Below, in pieces: positions 55,566-64,000 of a DNA stretch of 64,000 bases (its first letter is position 1; each line of letters starts with the position of its first letter). The stretch is from a bacterium. GTDB taxonomy: Bacteria; Zhuqueibacterota; QNDG01; JAFGCO01. The DNA is taken from positions 207 to 64,206 of the forward strand of contig JAFGGN010000062.1 in assembly GCA_016930535.1 (NCBI GenBank), written 5' to 3'. Position numbers and translations under genes: made by a program. The notes under the pieces are model-generated. The model did no database searches, was not told where the DNA came from, and worked only from the letters and a program-made list of their open reading frames with translations.

Positions 55566-56834
55566 ATGAGATCAGGCGTTATCATCAAACAGTCGGGGCC
55601 GGTCATGATCCATATCACAAAGAAAGTATCCGCACTCATCGCCGTCTGTCTGGCCGTCTCCTCCGTCCTCTGCCAGACGCCTGAAACCATAAGGCCGGGC
55701 TGTCCGGAATGCCGTTTGCTCAGGCTCGATTATGAAAATTCCGGCGGGGAAAACGGACTGACGACATTCGATTACAACGGGGATGGCCTGCTGGAAAAGG
55801 CCGTGTGGGAGCTGGACGACGGCAGCCGGATCTCCCTGAATTCATACACACACGATAAAGACGGCAGGCTCATCCGGAAGTACCGTGAGTATTCCGACAG
55901 TCTGATATCGGATCAGGCATTCGAGTATAATAACCGGGGACAATTGATCACGGAGCGTTTCGAGAGGTCCGACAGTGTTTCGGGATTGACAACGTACGAG
56001 TATGACGATCAGGGAAGACTGGCCGGGATGCGGTGCAGGGGATTCAATGGGTGGTTTTACGGGGATATCGCCTTTACGTACGATGAGGCGGGTAGCAAAA
56101 TAAAGGGAGATATCCGGCATGAGGGTGAACACGCGGGCGTTATTTTATATTCGTATGACGAATGCGGCAACCTGATCAGGGAGCACTGGGATTTTTCGGG
56201 CCGGTGGAGCCAGACATTCATTTATGAATACGAAGCCTGTCCGGCAGCTCCGCCTGCGGTTTATGCATCTTCGAACGTGTTTATTTCCGGCAATCCGCAA
56301 TACCGTCTCATCGGAGAACATTATGATTATTCAGGCAAAACGGGCGGTCCGTCGTTTTATTTTTACGGCAAGGGCGGCAAGCTCCTGTCGAAGCGTTTCG
56401 AACGGTCGGACGGTTTTTCGACCGAAACGGATTATTTGTACGATTGTAAGGGGAAGCTGACCCGGTCCTGCAGACACTATTCGAACGGACTCTTCGCGGT
56501 CTTTTCCTATGAATCCGGTCCGTCCGGCAAACTTGCGACACGGTCATTCAGGCGTACGGACGGTGTCTCCGGAAGCGAATCCTATGCATACGATTCCAGG
56601 TCGAACCTGGTATCCGCACAGTGGATCAATGTCGACTCATGGCTCACCGGAGCGCTGACATTCACTTCCGCTGAAGACGGAACACTTACCGGCGGGCATT
56701 ATCAGGGAGCGGACGGTTCCGGCGCTGAGATCCGGTTCGAATATGACGCTCACGGGAATTTACTGAAAATTCACTGGGATTTTGCATCCGGTGCAACTCA
56801 GACATATGTGTTTGAGTATGAATATGCCAAATGA
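55566..56834 (+). CDS. Secreted YD/RHS-like repeat protein of two tandem homologous halves (start may be 55605)
   Basis: Repeated YxYDxxGxL beta-hairpins; both halves end YDxxGNL.+.HWDF....QT...EYE. Confidence 0.7.
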   Translation: MRSGVIIKQSGPVMIHITKKVSALIAVCLAVSSVLCQTPETIRPGCPECRLLRLDYENSGGENGLTTFDYNGDGLLEKAVWELDDGSRISLNSYTHDKDGRLIRKYREYSDSLISDQAFEYNNRGQLITERFERSDSVSGLTTYEYDDQGRLAGMRCRGFNGWFYGDIAFTYDEAGSKIKGDIRHEGEHAGVILYSYDECGNLIREHWDFSGRWSQTFIYEYEACPAAPPAVYASSNVFISGNPQYRLIGEHYDYSGKTGGPSFYFYGKGGKLLSKRFERSDGFSTETDYLYDCKGKLTRSCRHYSNGLFAVFSYESGPSGKLATRSFRRTDGVSGSESYAYDSRSNLVSAQWINVDSWLTGALTFTSAEDGTLTGGHYQGADGSGAEIRFEYDAHGNLLKIHWDFASGATQTYVFEYEYAK

Positions 56835-56847
56835 ATCCGTTTCCCGC

Positions 56848-57615
56848 CTAAAGCCATGACAGCGTGACTTCTCCGGGTTCGGGATTGACCAGCTGATGGA
56901 ACAATTCCGTCAGGCCGGCCAGACAGCCGGGGAGGTTGTCATTGGACATGGTCTGAACGGCATCCTGATAAATCAGCTGGCCTTCCTTCAATATGCCGAC
57001 TTCCATGCACACTTTTTCGATCAGGCTCAGATTGTGCGAGGTCATAAAAACCGTGGTACCTTTTGCAGCCATTCGCATGATGATGTCCTGAATCATTCCG
57101 GATGAAACCGGATCCAGGCCATCGAACAATTCGTCGATAAAGAGAATTCGGGGATCGTGAATGATGGCGCACATGAAGGCCAGTTTTTTCTTCATGCCCT
57201 TCGAATACTCATGGATCCACATCTGCCTCTGACCGTAAAGATCGAATGCGATAAAAAGTTCATGCAGCCGTTCCAAGGCTGTTCGTCTGTCCAATCCGTA
57301 TATCCGTGCCGAGAAATACAACTGTTCATCCGCATGCAGATGATCGAAGAGGGCCAGATCTTCCGTGACCACGCCGATTTCCGATTTAATTGCACAGCTG
57401 TTTTTGGACGTGAATTCCCGTCCCAGAAGATAAATCCGGCCATGACTGGCCCTGAGAAGCCCGGTCAGCAGATTCATGCTGGTGGTTTTGCCGGAACCAT
57501 TGGGACCGACAAGTCCGTATATGACGGATTCGCGAACACTGAAATTGATATTGGTTAAGGCTTGCCGCATGCCGTAATTCTTGCACAGATCGGCGGTTCG
57601 AATCGCAAAGTCCAT
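56848..57615 (-). CDS. ABC-2 type transporter ATP-binding subunit
   Basis: GPNGSGKTT, YSKGMKKK, FIDELFDGLD, TSHNL. Confidence 0.9.
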   Translation of the reverse strand: MDFAIRTADLCKNYGMRQALTNINFSVRESVIYGLVGPNGSGKTTSMNLLTGLLRASHGRIYLLGREFTSKNSCAIKSEIGVVTEDLALFDHLHADEQLYFSARIYGLDRRTALERLHELFIAFDLYGQRQMWIHEYSKGMKKKLAFMCAIIHDPRILFIDELFDGLDPVSSGMIQDIIMRMAAKGTTVFMTSHNLSLIEKVCMEVGILKEGQLIYQDAVQTMSNDNLPGCLAGLTELFHQLVNPEPGEVTLSWL

Positions 57616-59259
57616 TCAACCTCCTCTGATTGTCATGACAAACGTTTCTTTTTCCTTTTCCAGAAGATGTGCCACCGGCCTGAGACTGACTGCATATATG
57701 TCCACGGCCAGGATGGCCATGATCAACATGACCGGGATGCTTCCTGCCGGCGATTGAATCAGGCTCAGAACGAGGGCCACAGGCAGCGAGAAGCCGACGA
57801 AGGCGATGATGAGCAGAATGTTGTTTTGAACCGATGTCGATTTACCGAATATGGAACAGAAATCGGTTCGTGACGGATTTTTAGTCAGAAGACTGTTGAT
57901 ACACAGACTGATGATTGCGTAGAAATAGATCAGAATCAGTTCGCAGAGCAGGATCATTCCCGCGCCGGCATGCTGATGAAAAAGAAGAATGCTGAGGGCT
58001 ATGCTCTGTATCAGACTGATCTGAACCACACAAAAATAAGCCAGATTCTTTATGAGAAGATAATGCCTGATCCGGACCGGAACGATAAAAACCTGCTGTA
58101 TGCCTTTTCCGTCGAACGTGTGCATATAGAATCCCTCCTTCGACAGGACAACGGGTGCGATACACACGGCCACGGCCATCTTCATGACGGTCGGACCATC
58201 CCGCAGCAGCCAGCTGCAGTAGATGACGGTGACGAGCATGCACAGCAGAAGATACATCCAGGTCCGACCGCTCCTGATCAGGTATAATATCTCTTTCTTC
58301 AGCAGGATGTTTATTCCGGTGTTCTGCGGGACGATGAAATCATGGAGCCAGTTTTTCAAAAGAGGGCTGGACGAGCGGCTGACAGGATTCCCGCCTGCCC
58401 GATAACGATCCGAATCGATCAATCCGGAGAAAAACAGAAAGCAAAGCGTCATCAGGATGATGTCGGTCAGAGTGAGCCACAGTACACTTCGGATGAAGCC
58501 GGCGGATAATCCTGAGGCGAACAGGCTCCCGGTTGCACTGGCTGCAGATGTCCACGGCGTCAGCCCGATGAGCAGGCGGCCGGAACGCAACACCTGCAGG
58601 GGCAGCGGACTGCCGAACGAGAAATAAAAGCCCGTCAGTGCAAGGACCGCGGCGGCAAGGATCCATTTGAACAGTCTGCCCAGTCGCCCCATTCCCGGAT
58701 GCCTTCCCAACAGGGACTCGTACAACAAATAGAAAAGAAAACGGAGTGAGAGAATGCTGGTCATGTACAGAAAACATATCAGGATCAGCCCGGGCCACCG
58801 CATCAGATTCAGGAACCCGGGAACAGCAGTCACGATGATGATAATTAAGCCGAAGAAAACGAGACTCGGAATGTCCAGGGCCGTTATAATAAATTCATAC
58901 AGAAACAGCCGGAATCTGGAAACGGGCAGAAAACCACGGGAACGCAACCGGGACGGTGAAGTATGGTGAACGCCCAGATAAAAACCTGCGGCGATCATGC
59001 CGTATCCACCCCAGAAAAAAAGCGCCTGAAACACATGAGGGTTCGTCACGATCTGCCGCTCGAAGATGCGGAACATATCCCGGATGAAGCCGGCCCCGAA
59101 ATACACAACAATGCCCAGAAGTGCGAACAGTACGGCTGCCGGATTTTTAAAGGGTCCTCTCCTGTAAAAAAAACGGTTGAAACGCTGTCTCAGCATCAGT
59201 CGGAATATCATGTTTTGCTCCAGATGGATTTCTATAAAATAAAAATGTTTTCGTTCCAT
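57616..59259 (-). CDS. ABC transporter permease (about 12 TM, two halves); start may be 59211
   Basis: Many hydrophobic segments, internal LLKKEILYLIRS motif, abuts the ATPase gene. Confidence 0.75.
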   Translation of the reverse strand: MERKHFYFIEIHLEQNMIFRLMLRQRFNRFFYRRGPFKNPAAVLFALLGIVVYFGAGFIRDMFRIFERQIVTNPHVFQALFFWGGYGMIAAGFYLGVHHTSPSRLRSRGFLPVSRFRLFLYEFIITALDIPSLVFFGLIIIIVTAVPGFLNLMRWPGLILICFLYMTSILSLRFLFYLLYESLLGRHPGMGRLGRLFKWILAAAVLALTGFYFSFGSPLPLQVLRSGRLLIGLTPWTSAASATGSLFASGLSAGFIRSVLWLTLTDIILMTLCFLFFSGLIDSDRYRAGGNPVSRSSSPLLKNWLHDFIVPQNTGINILLKKEILYLIRSGRTWMYLLLCMLVTVIYCSWLLRDGPTVMKMAVAVCIAPVVLSKEGFYMHTFDGKGIQQVFIVPVRIRHYLLIKNLAYFCVVQISLIQSIALSILLFHQHAGAGMILLCELILIYFYAIISLCINSLLTKNPSRTDFCSIFGKSTSVQNNILLIIAFVGFSLPVALVLSLIQSPAGSIPVMLIMAILAVDIYAVSLRPVAHLLEKEKETFVMTIRGG

Positions 59260-59300
59260 CCCTGAAAAAGCGAATGAAACGAAAACATATCAGGCCGGAA

Positions 59301-59471
59301 TCAGCATGGCGCTTTGGCCATCATGAAACCGAACGCCACCGCACCAACCACCGGTCCCAACGCCGCCGCACCGATGCCGGCCACCGCCAGTGACTGAAAA
59401 ATATAGACAGCACAGGCGAGTTTTTTGCCTCCTTCGAGCTCCAGCAGTTCTGATTCTGTCAGTAATGTCAT
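59301..59471 (-). CDS. Double-glycine-leader peptide precursor 2 (56 aa), not in the ORF track
   Basis: Manual translation MTLLTESELLELEGG|KKLACAVYIFQSLAVAGIGAAALGPVVGAVAFGFMMAKAPC*; GGGAGGAG RBS upstream. Confidence 0.88.
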   Translation of the reverse strand: MTLLTESELLELEGGKKLACAVYIFQSLAVAGIGAAALGPVVGAVAFGFMMAKAPC

Positions 59472-59492
59472 GTTCTCCTCCCTGAATGTGAA

Positions 59493-59654
59493 TTACATCA
59501 GTCTGCCGATGGCCCACCCGACACAGGCGGCACCGGCGATGAGCAGGGGTGCGAAGAACAGGGCGCCGACGCCGACTGCCGCGCAACCGTAATCCACGGC
59601 CCTTTTCCACCCTCCTTCGAGCTGCTCCATCTGCTGAATGGTGAGTTCGTGCAT
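59493..59654 (-). CDS. Double-glycine-leader peptide precursor 1 (53 aa; start reassigned from 59774)
   Basis: MHELTIQQMEQLEGG|WKRAVDYGCAAVGVGALFFAPLLIAGAACVGWAIGRLM*; AAAGGAGG RBS. Confidence 0.9.
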   Translation of the reverse strand: MHELTIQQMEQLEGGWKRAVDYGCAAVGVGALFFAPLLIAGAACVGWAIGRLM

Positions 59655-59724
59655 GGATCCTCCTTTCTTTGGTTTGGAATGAATCGTTATCCTGCACAAA
59701 CGGGCATTTGATGCAGGATCGCGT

Positions 59725-60273
59725 TTAATTTGCAGAATATGCCTGATCGGCCTGTTCCGGTTCGGCGGAATCATGACCTCCGATCAGACCGGCGAGCGAC
59801 CGGATATTGAACTCGCCAGTTGATTTGTAAATCAGCCTCCCGTCCGGGGCGAACACATAAATCGATGGTACGCTCCGTGTGCCGAAAACCATTCTCAGTG
59901 TATCCGGATCCACCAGCCCCCAGAATATCCGGCCGGTTCCGTTCAGATCCGGGTACTTCTGAATGTAGTAACCGGGGGGAGGCAGATCGCTGTCCGTCCA
60001 GATAAACAACCTGGCCGATGAAAACGACTGGACGTGGTTCTCCAATTCTTTCAAAAAATAATGGCAATAGGGACAGTCCGGTCGGTGAATGATGATGCAT
60101 GTGTGAATCGAAGGGTCCGGGCCAAGTTCCGCGATGCCGGATCCGGACCTGTACCACATACGGGGCAGGCTTGCCCCAAGCGGCAGTACATCGGGCCTGA
60201 ACACTTCACGGATCAGGAGCGTCAGACAGATCAGCATCATTGAAACCATCACGCAATAGAACAATCTTTTCAT
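59725..60273 (-). CDS. Membrane-anchored thioredoxin-fold (TlpA/redoxin-like) protein
   Basis: N-terminal TM MKRLFYCVMVSMMLICL; HRPDCPYC motif; FGTRSVPSIYVF cis-Pro region. Confidence 0.8.
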   Translation of the reverse strand: MKRLFYCVMVSMMLICLTLLIREVFRPDVLPLGASLPRMWYRSGSGIAELGPDPSIHTCIIIHRPDCPYCHYFLKELENHVQSFSSARLFIWTDSDLPPPGYYIQKYPDLNGTGRIFWGLVDPDTLRMVFGTRSVPSIYVFAPDGRLIYKSTGEFNIRSLAGLIGGHDSAEPEQADQAYSAN

Positions 60274-60281
60274 TCCGGCTC

Positions 60282-60938
60282 CTACGCCATGAGCCGCATC
60301 AGATATGCGACAACGGCCCATTGGAAAATGAACATGAAAAACCAGATGCCCAGTATCAGGATCAGGGCATTGGTTAAGGACATGGAACGGATGCGGAGCA
60401 GTCCGTAAACCATCAGACCGATCCAGAGGCCCTGGAAAATATTCAGATGATTCATCAGGAAGACGGTCGATGCCGGGTAAGAGGACATATCGAAAAATCC
60501 GGACAGGGAAAGCGGAACATGGGACAGGGCGGCATAATCCAGTGAACCGGATGGAACGTGCATGCGCAGCAGGGTTCCGGATAATTTACCGGAGAGCAGC
60601 GGAATTTCCGCCAGGCATACGGTTACAAACAGGCGCCCGAACGGCATGTCCTTCAGCTTAAGTACGAAAGGAAACTGAACCAGCAGTGTTTTAAAAACGA
60701 TTTTCAGCATCAGGACAACAGGGACCAGCACATAGACGATTCCGGAAAACCGGTGTATCTGATCCGCATACCGGTCGATGAGTGCGGCATCCATCCGGTC
60801 TGACAGGATCGAATGATAGGCCTCCCGTGTCATGATGACCTCTTGTGTCAGAAACAGGTCCAGCGCAAGGCCGGCCGTGAGCATACAAAACAGAAGCCAT
60901 CCGTCATTGTCCGGTTTCCCATGGGATTGATTATCCAT
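60282..60938 (-). CDS. Multi-pass membrane accessory protein of the peptide cluster
   Basis: About 5 hydrophobic segments; ATG overlaps the exporter stop (translational coupling). Confidence 0.75.
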   Translation of the reverse strand: MDNQSHGKPDNDGWLLFCMLTAGLALDLFLTQEVIMTREAYHSILSDRMDAALIDRYADQIHRFSGIVYVLVPVVLMLKIVFKTLLVQFPFVLKLKDMPFGRLFVTVCLAEIPLLSGKLSGTLLRMHVPSGSLDYAALSHVPLSLSGFFDMSSYPASTVFLMNHLNIFQGLWIGLMVYGLLRIRSMSLTNALILILGIWFFMFIFQWAVVAYLMRLMA

Positions 60939-63147
60939 GATCCGCCTTTCCTGCCGGGTCCTGTTTTTTATGAATCCCGTGCGAAAAATGAGGACCGGGT
61001 GAAAAAAGCAGATCCGGAGGCACGGTACGGACGATTTTTCCGCGGTCCAGCACATGCACCTGGTCCGTGTAAAACAGGGACTGCATGTCGTGCGTGATCA
61101 GGAGCACGGCGTGATCCGCTGCATAGTCCCTCAGTCCTTTCAGAATACGCAGCCTGATTTCCATATCGGTCATGAGAATGCCTTCGTCCACGATCAGCAC
61201 ATCCGGACAGGACAGAAGCGCCCGTACCAGGCCGACGACCTGCCGTTCACCTCCGGACAGTTTCCTTCCGTCTTCTCCGAGAATCGCCGTCATTCCGGAA
61301 TCGAAACGGTCGAAAACGGGACCCGCGCCGAATGCATGAATTCTGGCACGTATATCCGGGAGGCCGTATTCCATCCGGCCCATGCGGATGTTTTCAAAAA
61401 GGGATCCGTTGAAAATATGCACCTCCTGATGAATTGCGGCTACGCGCTGCCGGTAATCCGTCAGATTCAGGCGGCCGGCCGGAAGACCGTTGACGGACAG
61501 GATGCCGGCCGACAGGGCATATTTTCTCTGGAGCAGGCTGGCGATCGTACTTTTACCCGTCCCGCTTTTTCCCCACAGCGCGGAAATGGTGCCGCACCGG
61601 ATATGCAGATTCAGGCCGTCCAGCAGGCGTGAGCAGCGTGGGTAGGCAAACCGGCCGTTCTCGATGATGAGTTCGCGGATTTTCCCCGGTTTTTCGGAGG
61701 CCTGGTGGTTTTCCCGTTCATAATCCAGAATGTCCCGCTGTCTTCTGATGGCCACGCGGGTCTGTTTCAGGGCAATGACGGTGTCCCCGAACTGATGCAC
61801 GGCAGGGACAATGGTCATCATCAGCGCCCAGGCGGCCATCATTTCTCCGATTCGCAGAGATCCGTGCAGCACCTGCGCGGCACCCGAAGCAAGGAAAATG
61901 ACCAGGAACAGGCCATGAAGATGCCCGGAGCAGAGCGAGATATGGTTCCTGGTGAAGCCGAGTTTTTCAAGATGTTTCTGAAACAGTGTAAATAAACGGC
62001 TGTTGATCATGATAAACGGTTCATGCGCATGAAATCCAATGATATCGTCGATGCCCTTCAGGCTGTTGAAGGCCGAGGATTCCACATCCGCAAAAGATTT
62101 CAGTGTCCATGTCTGTTCATCTTCGATATGCCGGGTCCTGGCCAGCAGTAAAACGGCGTACAGGATCAGGAACAAAATGAGGATGCCTGCAAGCGTTTTT
62201 GAGAACAGGATGAGCAGAACAAACGATGCGGCACACATGATACCGTCCACTACGGTCTGGTTCAGGAGCAGCATCAGTCCCTGCTGGATCTTCAGACTGT
62301 CATTCAGGCGTGCAATAATATCTCCGATTTTCCGGGAGTCGAAAAACATTCTGGGCAGCCTGAAAAGATGTTCCAGAAAATCCCGGTTGATATCCATGCT
62401 CATGGTTTTGTTCAGGGAGATAAAAAACCGCTGCCGGAAATAGGCAGCCCATGTCCGGCAGAGAATAAAACAGGCAAGCAGGATACAGGTCCAGACAATG
62501 TCGGACAGATCGCCCCGGGGAATCAGCACGTCGATCAGCTGATGGATGTAAAAGACCGGCAGCAATCCCAGAAGGCTTGCAAGCAGACCCAGAAATACGG
62601 ACTGGTAAAACAGGGGAAGAATGCGTCTGATGTAATGCATGAGCCATTCTGTCCAGGGCGGTTCTGTACGGCTGGTCAATGGCCTTTCCGGCTCGAGCAG
62701 GATGACGGCTCCGGATTGCCATATATCGAGAAAACGGGATTTGCTTATTTTCCTGAGGCCTTCGGCCGGATCTCCGGCAAGTACGTTTTTGTGCGTGACC
62801 CTGAAGAGCACCATGAAATGCTGAAGACCGGCTTCCGATACGACATGGGCGATACAGGGCATCCGCTCACGGCTCAGGTCCGAATAGGAACCGGCTGCGC
62901 CTCTGGCCCGGAATCCAAGAGATTGGGCGGCCCTGACCAGTTCCAGCATGCTTGTACCGATCCGGTCCGCATGGCACAGCTGCCGGACATGGGCCATTGG
63001 GGCATCTCCCCCGTAGAATCTCAGAACGCTCAGCAATGCGGCCGGTCCGCAATCACTGCTGTCCATCTGGCGGACGATTCCGGGTCTGTGTCTGAATCGC
63101 AACCTGAGGTATCTGTACAGCGCAGAAAAACCATATATCCGCATCAT
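60931..63147 (-). CDS. Peptidase C39-containing ABC transporter (PCAT)
   Basis: RQMDSSDCGPAAL (catalytic Cys), QHFMVL (His), GDPA; TM domain; GKSGTGKST, LSGGERQ, IVDEG, ITHD. Confidence 0.93.
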   Translation of the reverse strand: MMRIYGFSALYRYLRLRFRHRPGIVRQMDSSDCGPAALLSVLRFYGGDAPMAHVRQLCHADRIGTSMLELVRAAQSLGFRARGAAGSYSDLSRERMPCIAHVVSEAGLQHFMVLFRVTHKNVLAGDPAEGLRKISKSRFLDIWQSGAVILLEPERPLTSRTEPPWTEWLMHYIRRILPLFYQSVFLGLLASLLGLLPVFYIHQLIDVLIPRGDLSDIVWTCILLACFILCRTWAAYFRQRFFISLNKTMSMDINRDFLEHLFRLPRMFFDSRKIGDIIARLNDSLKIQQGLMLLLNQTVVDGIMCAASFVLLILFSKTLAGILILFLILYAVLLLARTRHIEDEQTWTLKSFADVESSAFNSLKGIDDIIGFHAHEPFIMINSRLFTLFQKHLEKLGFTRNHISLCSGHLHGLFLVIFLASGAAQVLHGSLRIGEMMAAWALMMTIVPAVHQFGDTVIALKQTRVAIRRQRDILDYERENHQASEKPGKIRELIIENGRFAYPRCSRLLDGLNLHIRCGTISALWGKSGTGKSTIASLLQRKYALSAGILSVNGLPAGRLNLTDYRQRVAAIHQEVHIFNGSLFENIRMGRMEYGLPDIRARIHAFGAGPVFDRFDSGMTAILGEDGRKLSGGERQVVGLVRALLSCPDVLIVDEGILMTDMEIRLRILKGLRDYAADHAVLLITHDMQSLFYTDQVHVLDRGKIVRTVPPDLLFSPGPHFSHGIHKKQDPAGKADHG

Positions 63148-63161
63148 TAGCAAGACCAATT

Positions 63162-63197: not shown

Positions 63198-63477
63198 CAG
63201 AATCAGTATAAAAAATAAAATCACATTTGTCAAGCAAAAAATGCAATAAATACGTAATTAAGCAAAATTACTCTTATAATGGAAGAAAATTCAGGTAATG
63301 ATGCACAATCGCGTGAAATTTTACGATTCATATTGAAAATATGGCATTTATTACCGTTTTTCTCCGTGAATCGCCGATCGGTTCCGCATATGCCGCCGGT
63401 TCGGTCCCGCATGTTTTCCATTGATTTTATAATTTGATATGCGTATACTCGTTTATCGATGATTCCCGGCTGATTTG

Positions 63478-64000
63478 ATGCAGAAAGGAAATCAATCCCA
63501 TTCATCGTCCCTTCATCTGGAAATCCGCAACCCGGTAATCCGCATGGAAAAATACTTCAACGAATACTGGAAAGATTTCGCCAACGCATTTATTCATCCG
63601 GTGACGTCCAACGGTCTGATCAGCAAGTTTGTCTCCAATCCCGCAGTCGCCGGTTTGTATATGGAGACCTGGATCCGTGATCTGCTGAAAACCATGATGC
63701 CACATTACAGGATATCGGCAGGTGCCATCATCCGTTCCTCGGACCGGATCTCGGAGGCGGGCAAGATTCCTGAATGCGCCCTCATTGTCTGGGATCCCAC
63801 CGAACTGCCCGCGATTTTTGAAAAGGAAGGATTTGCACTGGTGCCCAGTTTTTCCGTGCGCGCCCTCGTGGAAGTCAAGAAAAACAGTCAGCGGATACCG
63901 AAATTCAAGGATCATCTGGCGAAGCTGCAGGACTGCATGCTGGACGAATACAGAAACAATGTTCTGGGCATCGTGTTTTCGCATTCCGAACCCCTGTACA
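63478..64000 (+). CDS. DUF6602-like PD-(D/E)XK-fold protein, partial (start 63478 or 63544; runs off the window)
   Basis: Manual translation ..AGLYMETWIRDLLKTMMPHYRISAGAII..PECALIVWD..PAIF..LVPSFSVRALVEVK; not in the ORF track. Confidence 0.55.
   Translation, partial: MQKGNQSHSSSLHLEIRNPVIRMEKYFNEYWKDFANAFIHPVTSNGLISKFVSNPAVAGLYMETWIRDLLKTMMPHYRISAGAIIRSSDRISEAGKIPECALIVWDPTELPAIFEKEGFALVPSFSVRALVEVKKNSQRIPKFKDHLAKLQDCMLDEYRNNVLGIVFSHSEPLY

Follow-up and report, generated by a model that had tools for sequence, protein, structure and literature searches.

A gene for a short precursor with a double-glycine leader, pepA, lies on the minus strand of the window (the whole stretch of 64,000 nucleotides analyzed here) and is followed by a second short open reading frame, pepB, on the same strand. 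The locus raises the question of whether pepB is a gene at all and, if so, whether the products of the two genes act together or merely share an export system. An open reading frame of this length is by itself little evidence, as the region from 52 to 64 kb overlaps 127 ORFs with a length of 30 aa or more. We addressed the question by homology searches, by comparison of gene neighborhoods in other genomes and by structure prediction.

Results

Two adjoining precursors with common leaders and unrelated cores

An earlier note on this DNA had claimed a 56-aa ORF 21 bp past the stop codon of precursor 1 (pepA), equipped with a ribosome-binding site of its own. Coordinates and translation proved exact, and a GGAGG sequence was indeed found 5 nt before the ATG. 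The features of the two genes are as follows:

59664..59659, minus strand: Shine-Dalgarno sequence of pepA, AGGAGG, 4 nt from the pepA ATG
59654..59493, minus strand: pepA (precursor 1), 53 aa, stop codon TAA at 59495-59493
59492..59472: spacer of 21 nt between the pepA stop codon and the pepB ATG
59482..59475, minus strand: Shine-Dalgarno sequence of pepB, GGGAGGAG, with its GGAGG core 5 nt from the ATG
59471..59301, minus strand: pepB, 56-aa precursor, ATG to TGA, translation MTLLTESELLELEGGKKLACAVYIFQSLAVAGIGAAALGPVVGAVAFGFMMAKAPC
59471..59427, minus strand: pepB leader, 15 residues, MTLLTESELLELEGG, ending in GG
59426..59304, minus strand: pepB core, 41 aa, followed by the stop codon at 59303..59301

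The ORF listed for pepA comprises 93 aa from an upstream ATG; homologs favor the 53-aa start used here. Its leader, MHELTIQQMEQLEGG, has 15 residues and ends in GG, as that of pepB does. Hydrophobic residues occupy the positions typical of double-glycine leaders in both precursors, namely L-4, M-7, L-12 and M-15 in pepA and L-4, L-7, L-12 and M-15 in pepB. At the DNA level the two leaders have the run AGCTCGAAGGAGG in common and are identical at 25 of 45 nucleotides. The cores, in turn, gave no BLASTP alignment at E ≤ 100, which agrees with the previous observation of a common leader ending in front of unrelated cores.

The mature peptides nevertheless resemble each other in composition. The computed pepA core comprises 38 aa with Cys9 and Cys29, a GWAIG motif, a net charge of +2 and a GRAVY of 1.22, and the computed pepB core carries Cys5 and the C-terminal Cys41, a GPVVG motif, a net charge of +3 and a GRAVY of 1.36. 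Gly and Ala together make up 39% of each mature peptide. Both sequences thus contain helix-packing motifs of the kind found in class IIb bacteriocins (GWAIG in pepA, GPVVG in pepB and several further [GAS]xxx[GAS] motifs), and the arrangement of two adjoining genes on the same strand with separate Shine-Dalgarno sites is also that of class IIb loci.

The second precursor had been described as hidden and missed by the ORF track. This is correct insofar as pepB falls below the 60-aa threshold of that listing, but public gene calls already include it: both pepB and pepA are present as called genes in a public protein collection (P0001 and P0002). The sole name given to pepB in any source is "hypothetical protein".

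pepB has full-length relatives in other genomes

An exhaustive phmmer search of 1.84 billion representative proteins retrieved six relatives of pepB, all full-length, 48-69 aa long and 38-53% identical, with a best E-value of 1.1e-8. Invariant among them are the GG site, a Cys at position 4-5 of the core, a Tyr three residues further on and a C-terminal Pro-Cys; in alignments A1 and A6 of the pepB family, the invariant positions are G14, C20, P55 and C56. A profile built for pepB and run against 5.8 billion proteins found only eight clusters, all of them unnamed and one of them beyond the phmmer set. In a word-indexed search of the 5.8 billion proteins, pepA and pepB each matched themselves alone, and single-sequence searches with both peptides in the own genome and 60 relatives returned weak, chance-level matches only. 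Scanning metagenome contigs for the pepA pattern yielded 426 pattern matches and no confirmed relative.

The longest pepB relative (P0007, 69 aa in the public gene call; L041 163-372 and L042 111-320) is that long only when a TGA codon is translated as Trp. By the standard bacterial code (table 11), it ends at the invariant Pro-Cys.

With short ORFs this abundant in G+C-rich DNA, pepB could in principle have been an untranslated chance ORF. The homology evidence decides against such a reading: the relatives align end to end (best phmmer E=1.1e-8), conservation is seen at the protein level and includes the functional residues of the GG site as well as the invariant Cys, Tyr and Pro-Cys, the position and the Shine-Dalgarno site are conserved, and gene callers predict pepB. 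On these comparative grounds the chance reading is ruled out and retains next to no probability; judged from sequence conservation, pepB is a true gene.

A and B genes are found side by side

In each of the contigs that harbor the pepB relatives found by phmmer (L033, L035, L036, L037, L041 and L043), a pepA relative adjoins the pepB relative. These adjoining partners follow the pattern GG|xWKxxVDxxC ... FCAGWxxGRL, and G14, C24 and C44 are invariant in alignments A2 and A7 of the pepA family. The pair of L035 is also present, uncalled, in L034, and further counterparts were seen as L041/L042, L043/L044 and L037-L040. Running the A and B HMMs over every stop-to-stop ORF in 80 C39-ABC loci of GTDB species genomes, together with a scan of the window's phylum, added pairs in the order B then A in L062 and L129 (KSB1), in L049, L061 and L063 (Ignavibacteriales/Melioribacteraceae) and in L111 (Calditrichia), the partner in L111 being identified by reading the sequence by hand.

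In total, 13 paired clusters including the window were counted, two of which (L049 and L061) are 94% identical in DNA. They carry the labels KSB1, Ignavibacteriota/Melioribacteraceae, Calditrichia and "Acidobacteria", some also Ignavibacteriales and Melioribacter. The earlier note had named absence or frameshift of pepB in all homologous clusters as the outcome that would speak against it. The opposite was observed, as the two genes are inherited in pairs, in the manner of class IIb bacteriocins, with intergenic distances between -4 and 44 nt. In nearly all pairs, both genes are preceded by a GGAGG- or AGGAG-type Shine-Dalgarno sequence. Both gene orders occur, L036 and L037-L040 being reversed and containing a four-Cys variant of pepA. 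Singletons were encountered twice: L122 has an A-like gene, and L133 a second copy that is B-like.

G14 is invariant in A and B, and each mature peptide has two Cys residues that form invariant pairs in alignments A6 (B) and A7 (A). The GW..[GS] motif is retained in most A members, and 5/7 close B members still have the second Gly of GPVVG. Pairwise identities of the A cores correlate with those of the B cores (Mantel r=0.48, p=4e-4), as expected of a jointly inherited unit. In a codon comparison of the closely similar L049 and L061, 4 synonymous and 3 non-synonymous differences were counted in pepB, against 5 and 1 in pepA; small as these numbers are, they lean toward purifying selection.

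In one locus (L129 678-1115, minus strand; genome G124, KSB1 phylum) both partners possess a third, C-terminal Cys, with A ending in ...GRWIDPC and B in ...AVSPCC. Since the odd Cys was gained in both partners at once, an inter-peptide bond is the simplest reading, and the sequences of this single locus suggest a covalent A-B heterodimer.

Full-length pepB was found in 3/167 species genomes of the window's phylum. The A/B family is rare and patchy in its distribution, which fits a mobile competition cassette. The source genome is a metagenome-assembled genome of 5 Mb in 141 contigs with a completeness of 92%.

Two further arrangements of double-glycine precursors were noticed along the way. 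On the metagenome contig L036, a second and unrelated GG-leader pair (1487-1861; 56 and 62 aa) comes directly past MauE and Trx genes and has a permease and an ATPase of its own behind it, the pair of pepB and the pepA variant lying further along. In two Gemmatimonadota MAGs (L064 3935-4379 and L065 3594-4325), 2-3 tandem, near-identical GG-leader two-Cys precursors, MHTLSSDQMTDIEGGGLF.CG..., are placed upstream of a related C39-ABC exporter; these are multi-copy genes and not a hetero-pair.

The precursor genes are embedded in a conserved export cluster

On the minus strand, the order is promoter-like site, exporter, 218-aa membrane protein, thioredoxin-like protein, pepA, pepB, permease and ATPase. 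The components surrounding the precursor genes are:

63233..63205, minus strand: promoter-like sequence TTGACA-17-TATACT, 11/12 matches to the consensus, 46 nt upstream of the exporter ORF
63159..60931, minus strand: C39-peptidase ABC exporter of the PCAT type (PF03412, 3e-28; PF00664; PF00005)
60938..60282, minus strand: multi-pass membrane protein of about 218 aa (alignment A4)
60273..59725, minus strand: membrane-anchored thioredoxin-like oxidoreductase with a CPYC motif (PF13098, E=6.5e-5, below cut-off)
59259..57616, minus strand: permease of 547 aa with about 12 TM helices (12 hydrophobic segments; no known family)
57615..56848, minus strand: ABC ATPase, DrrA- or lantibiotic-protection-like (PF00005, 2.9e-26)

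This gene order is repeated in L033, L037 and L043, and the components align (A3, A4, A5 and A8). The promoter-like site is a consensus match, and such sites are no commoner in the region than in shuffled sequences.

The exporter reaches 98.7 bits for PF03412 at a cut-off of 22 and matches TIGR01193 and TIGR03796 below their cut-offs. Q31, C37, H114 and D130 are invariant in alignment A5, so an intact C39 exporter is encoded close to the precursors. As the genome contains a single C39 domain, the one in the cluster exporter, this protein is left as the sole candidate for processing the two leaders.

The 218-aa protein is 21-34% identical to same-position genes in L033, L034, L037 and L043 and matched no Pfam or NCBIfam family. 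It probably starts with the Met at 60938 and not at the start of the 257-aa ORF at 61055. Likewise, the thioredoxin-like protein probably starts with MKRLFY at 60273 and has 182 aa, including one N-terminal TM helix (residues 3-21). The longest ORFs at 60282-61055 and 59725-60321 are too long, and the homolog-based starts remove overlaps of 125 nt and 40 nt. The CxxC motif and the cis-Pro are invariant in six cluster homologs of the thioredoxin-like protein, so that a conserved oxidoreductase accompanies the peptides much as in gallocin loci; homologs were found in 11/100 relatives.

In some clusters a MauE-family membrane protein precedes the Trx-like gene or is fused to it (L033 5038-5910, L034 1309-1752 and L039 461-844), where it may reoxidize the thioredoxin-like protein. 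The window's cluster does not contain a MauE-family gene.

Same-position genes of the permease are present in L033, L036, L037 and L043 (A3, 16-27% identity). The ATG of the ATPase gene directly abuts the permease stop codon, and an ATPase gene closes the homologous clusters, too; matches of the protein to TIGR01188 (2e-56) and TIGR03740 (4.7e-47) are each below cut-off. No small dedicated immunity gene, as would be typical of class IIb loci, is located beside pepA and pepB, the next genes being those of the 547-aa permease and the ATPase, which are, from position and conservation, a candidate self-protection transporter. No HlyD-type adaptor or TolC-type channel is encoded in the cluster, and neither the window's cluster nor the homologous clusters contain a histidine kinase or response regulator.

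Flanking the cluster are genes for an RHS/YD-repeat protein (55566-56834, plus strand; PF05593, 1.9e-13) and a DUF6602 protein (63475-63999, plus strand). Neither belongs to the conserved cluster of the other genomes.

Two potential RNA hairpins were observed on the minus strand. The one at 59719..59689, ATCCTGCA ... TGCAGGAT with an inner stem, lies 5 nt past the Trx stop codon and about 35 nt before pepA. It has a folding energy of -20.1 kcal/mol (z=-3.06; 0/200 shuffles as stable) and lacks a T-run. It was considered as a conserved regulatory element and rejected, as it has no counterpart in L033, L035, L043 or L062; for this reason it was left out of the definition of the system. In the other hairpin, at 59250-59283 (-16.9 kcal/mol, z=-2.2), the region past the pepB stop codon pairs with the start region of the permease gene (ATG at 59259), an arrangement that could keep translation of the genes further downstream below that of the peptides.

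Predicted structures place the cysteines around a central break

Based on the family alignments, AF2 predicted a helix-break-helix fold with modest confidence for both precursors (pepB: 6-38/40-53, pLDDT 65; pepA: 16-31/35-52, pLDDT 71). The two Cys residues are 19 and 17 residues away from the predicted break in pepB and 9 and 11 residues away in pepA. In these models, the near-equal distances would correspond to the geometry of a disulfide-stapled hairpin. Searching the models of pepA and pepB against the PDB by Foldseek gave no matches. A sequence search of the PDB with both profiles returned nothing significant either, the best match being the leader-like CtA peptide 7s5j_B at E=1.5.

Comparison with known bacteriocin families

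With 19.8 bits, pepB stays below the cut-off of 27.1 of the Pfam family PF10439 (Bacteriocin_IIc), and pepA has no Pfam match. Weak matches to PF10439 were obtained for 5/11 B members (best E 1.2e-4). For the NCBIfam model TIGR03949 (lactobin A/cerein 7B) the two peptides score 12.5 and 13.4 bits at a cut-off of 21.5. The likeness to these two families consists of a GG leader and a Gly/Ala-rich hydrophobic core, with all scores below cut-off.

[quoted passage not shown] The present locus resembles that of gallocin A (GllA1/GllA2) in having two different GG-leader precursors that adjoin in one operon, C39-ABC export, hydrophobic and poorly charged mature peptides of about 40 aa with two Cys each toward the ends and a thioredoxin-domain surface protein in the locus; a helical hairpin may be a further likeness, as it is predicted with modest confidence for each peptide here. 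The comparison is one of features. The present locus differs in its hosts, which are uncultured diderm-type bacteria (KSB1, Ignavibacteriota, Calditrichia) and not streptococci, and in the absence of a GIP-type immunity peptide, in place of which a 12-TM permease and an ABC ATPase are found. An extra conserved 218-aa membrane protein and the invariant Pro-Cys at the end of pepB are further differences.

The accessory genes resemble those of the bacteroidetocins. A 5-TM protein is encoded in bacteroidetocin loci together with a thiol oxidoreductase and a C39-ABC transporter; the toxin depends on the TM protein and the oxidoreductase for its activity, while neither of the two confers immunity (PMC6671954). 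As stated in PMC8546649, bacteroidetocins target BamA. Common to these peptides, for which a class IIf was proposed, and to the A/B pair are a Gram-negative FCB host, a 15-aa GG leader, Cys-containing peptides, the same accessory set (multi-TM protein, thiol oxidoreductase, C39-ABC) and a locus without HlyD/TolC. In contrast, bacteroidetocins consist of one four-Cys peptide, whereas here two unrelated, co-conserved two-Cys peptides are encoded, and they lack the ABC-2-like permease/ATPase pair present here. Compared by features, the A/B pair is thus placed outside class IIf: the accessory set is present, yet peptide number and Cys count differ.

Class II microcins of the MccV type are likewise Gram-negative, with a GG leader, a C39-ABC exporter and in some cases disulfides (PMC12219008). 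They differ in their export via an HlyD-type adaptor and TolC, in being single peptides and in having a small immunity protein. They show no sequence similarity to pepA or pepB except for one of 11 pepA members, which matches PF17508 at E=0.01.

Among the papers searched, none joins double-glycine peptides and KSB1, and the surveys of microcins and of gut class II bacteriocins that were consulted do not describe such A/B pairs. Because the scores for PF10439 and TIGR03949 are below cut-off, no relative was found in the PDB and no small immunity gene is present, the pair was not assigned to any named family. By sequence, A and B constitute a family without earlier description. Its best reading by analogy is a gallocin-type class IIb peptide logic set in a bacteroidetocin-like locus.

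Discussion

Our data favor the view, at a probability of about 0.6, that pepB encodes the second precursor of a conserved GG-leader A/B pair, which would constitute a two-peptide, disulfide-bridged class II bacteriocin. The earlier proposal that the locus is a two-peptide rather than a single-peptide one is supported by the pepA relatives that adjoin pepB in homologous clusters; joint action of the peptides, and with it a need for both of them, we infer from their strict co-occurrence.

In the mechanism that we propose, the cluster would be transcribed as one operon, and each precursor would be translated from the Shine-Dalgarno site observed before it. Judged by its family, the C39 ABC transporter would cut after Gly15 and export both peptides. 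The membrane-anchored CPYC thioredoxin-like protein, presumably facing outward, would oxidize the two invariant Cys residues of each core, and the resulting disulfide would hold each peptide in a stapled helix-turn-helix hairpin, bridging core residue 5 and the last residue in pepB. The mature peptides of 38 and 41 aa, being cationic, very hydrophobic and rich in Gly and Ala, might then jointly attack the membrane of competitors in a class IIb-like manner. From their position and conservation, the 12-TM permease and the ABC ATPase, possibly with the 218-aa protein, would protect or assist the producer.

A less likely alternative is that A and B are two independent one-peptide bacteriocins that travel together as a cassette and share exporter, oxidoreductase and protection transporter. 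Multi-bacteriocin loci with common machinery occur in streptococci, lactobacilli and cyanobacteria, and many C39-ABC loci of FCB-type MAGs hold several GG-leader two-Cys peptides, among them the tandem genes of L064 and L065 and the second pair of L036. The singletons in L122 and L133 and the absence of a dedicated single immunity gene would also suit independent toxins. Independence does not readily account for the regularity of the pairing, however, as A adjoins B in 13 clusters at 20-56% identity, under four lineage labels and in both orders, while A/A or B/B pairs were not seen among the clusters examined. The divergence of A is moreover correlated with that of B, and in L129 both partners gained the odd Cys simultaneously. 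Still less probable is a division of roles, with one peptide as the toxin and the other as a signal, a decoy or an immunity-like factor, or a non-antagonistic membrane function of the pair. GG-leader pheromone genes do adjoin class II bacteriocin genes in Gram-positive loci, but a signaling role is at odds with the lack of a histidine kinase or response regulator in the window's and the homologous clusters. An immunity-like partner would be compatible with the likeness between the immunity peptide of gallocin, GIP, and the hairpins of the toxin (PMC10100652). Both mature peptides are, however, long (38 and 41 aa), cationic, hydrophobic (GRAVY 1.2-1.4) and two-Cys, unlike short pheromones. Immunity proteins, for their part, normally have no export leader.

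Taking the two-peptide bacteriocin one step further, pepA and pepB may be obligate halves of a disulfide-stapled bacteriocin native to diderm FCB-type phyla (KSB1, Ignavibacteriota, Calditrichia), which operates without outer-membrane export genes and whose halves may be covalently joined in L129. We put this forward tentatively, at somewhat less than even odds. If it is true, no class IIb-like system would precede the pair beyond the Gram-positive bacteria, and the pair would have its own oxidoreductase; to our knowledge, work on two-peptide (class IIb) bacteriocins has dealt almost exclusively with lactic acid bacteria and streptococci. For annotation, the example illustrates that a 60-aa ORF threshold conceals half of such two-peptide systems. 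At about 4 kDa each, the mature peptides are within reach of synthetic production. The pair also raises the question, as bacteroidetocins do, of how the outer membrane is passed without HlyD/TolC genes. With a conserved, unnamed A/B pair that is encoded together with a disulfide-forming enzyme in uncultured lineages of sediment and subsurface, class IIb action would reach into Gram-negative-type phyla.
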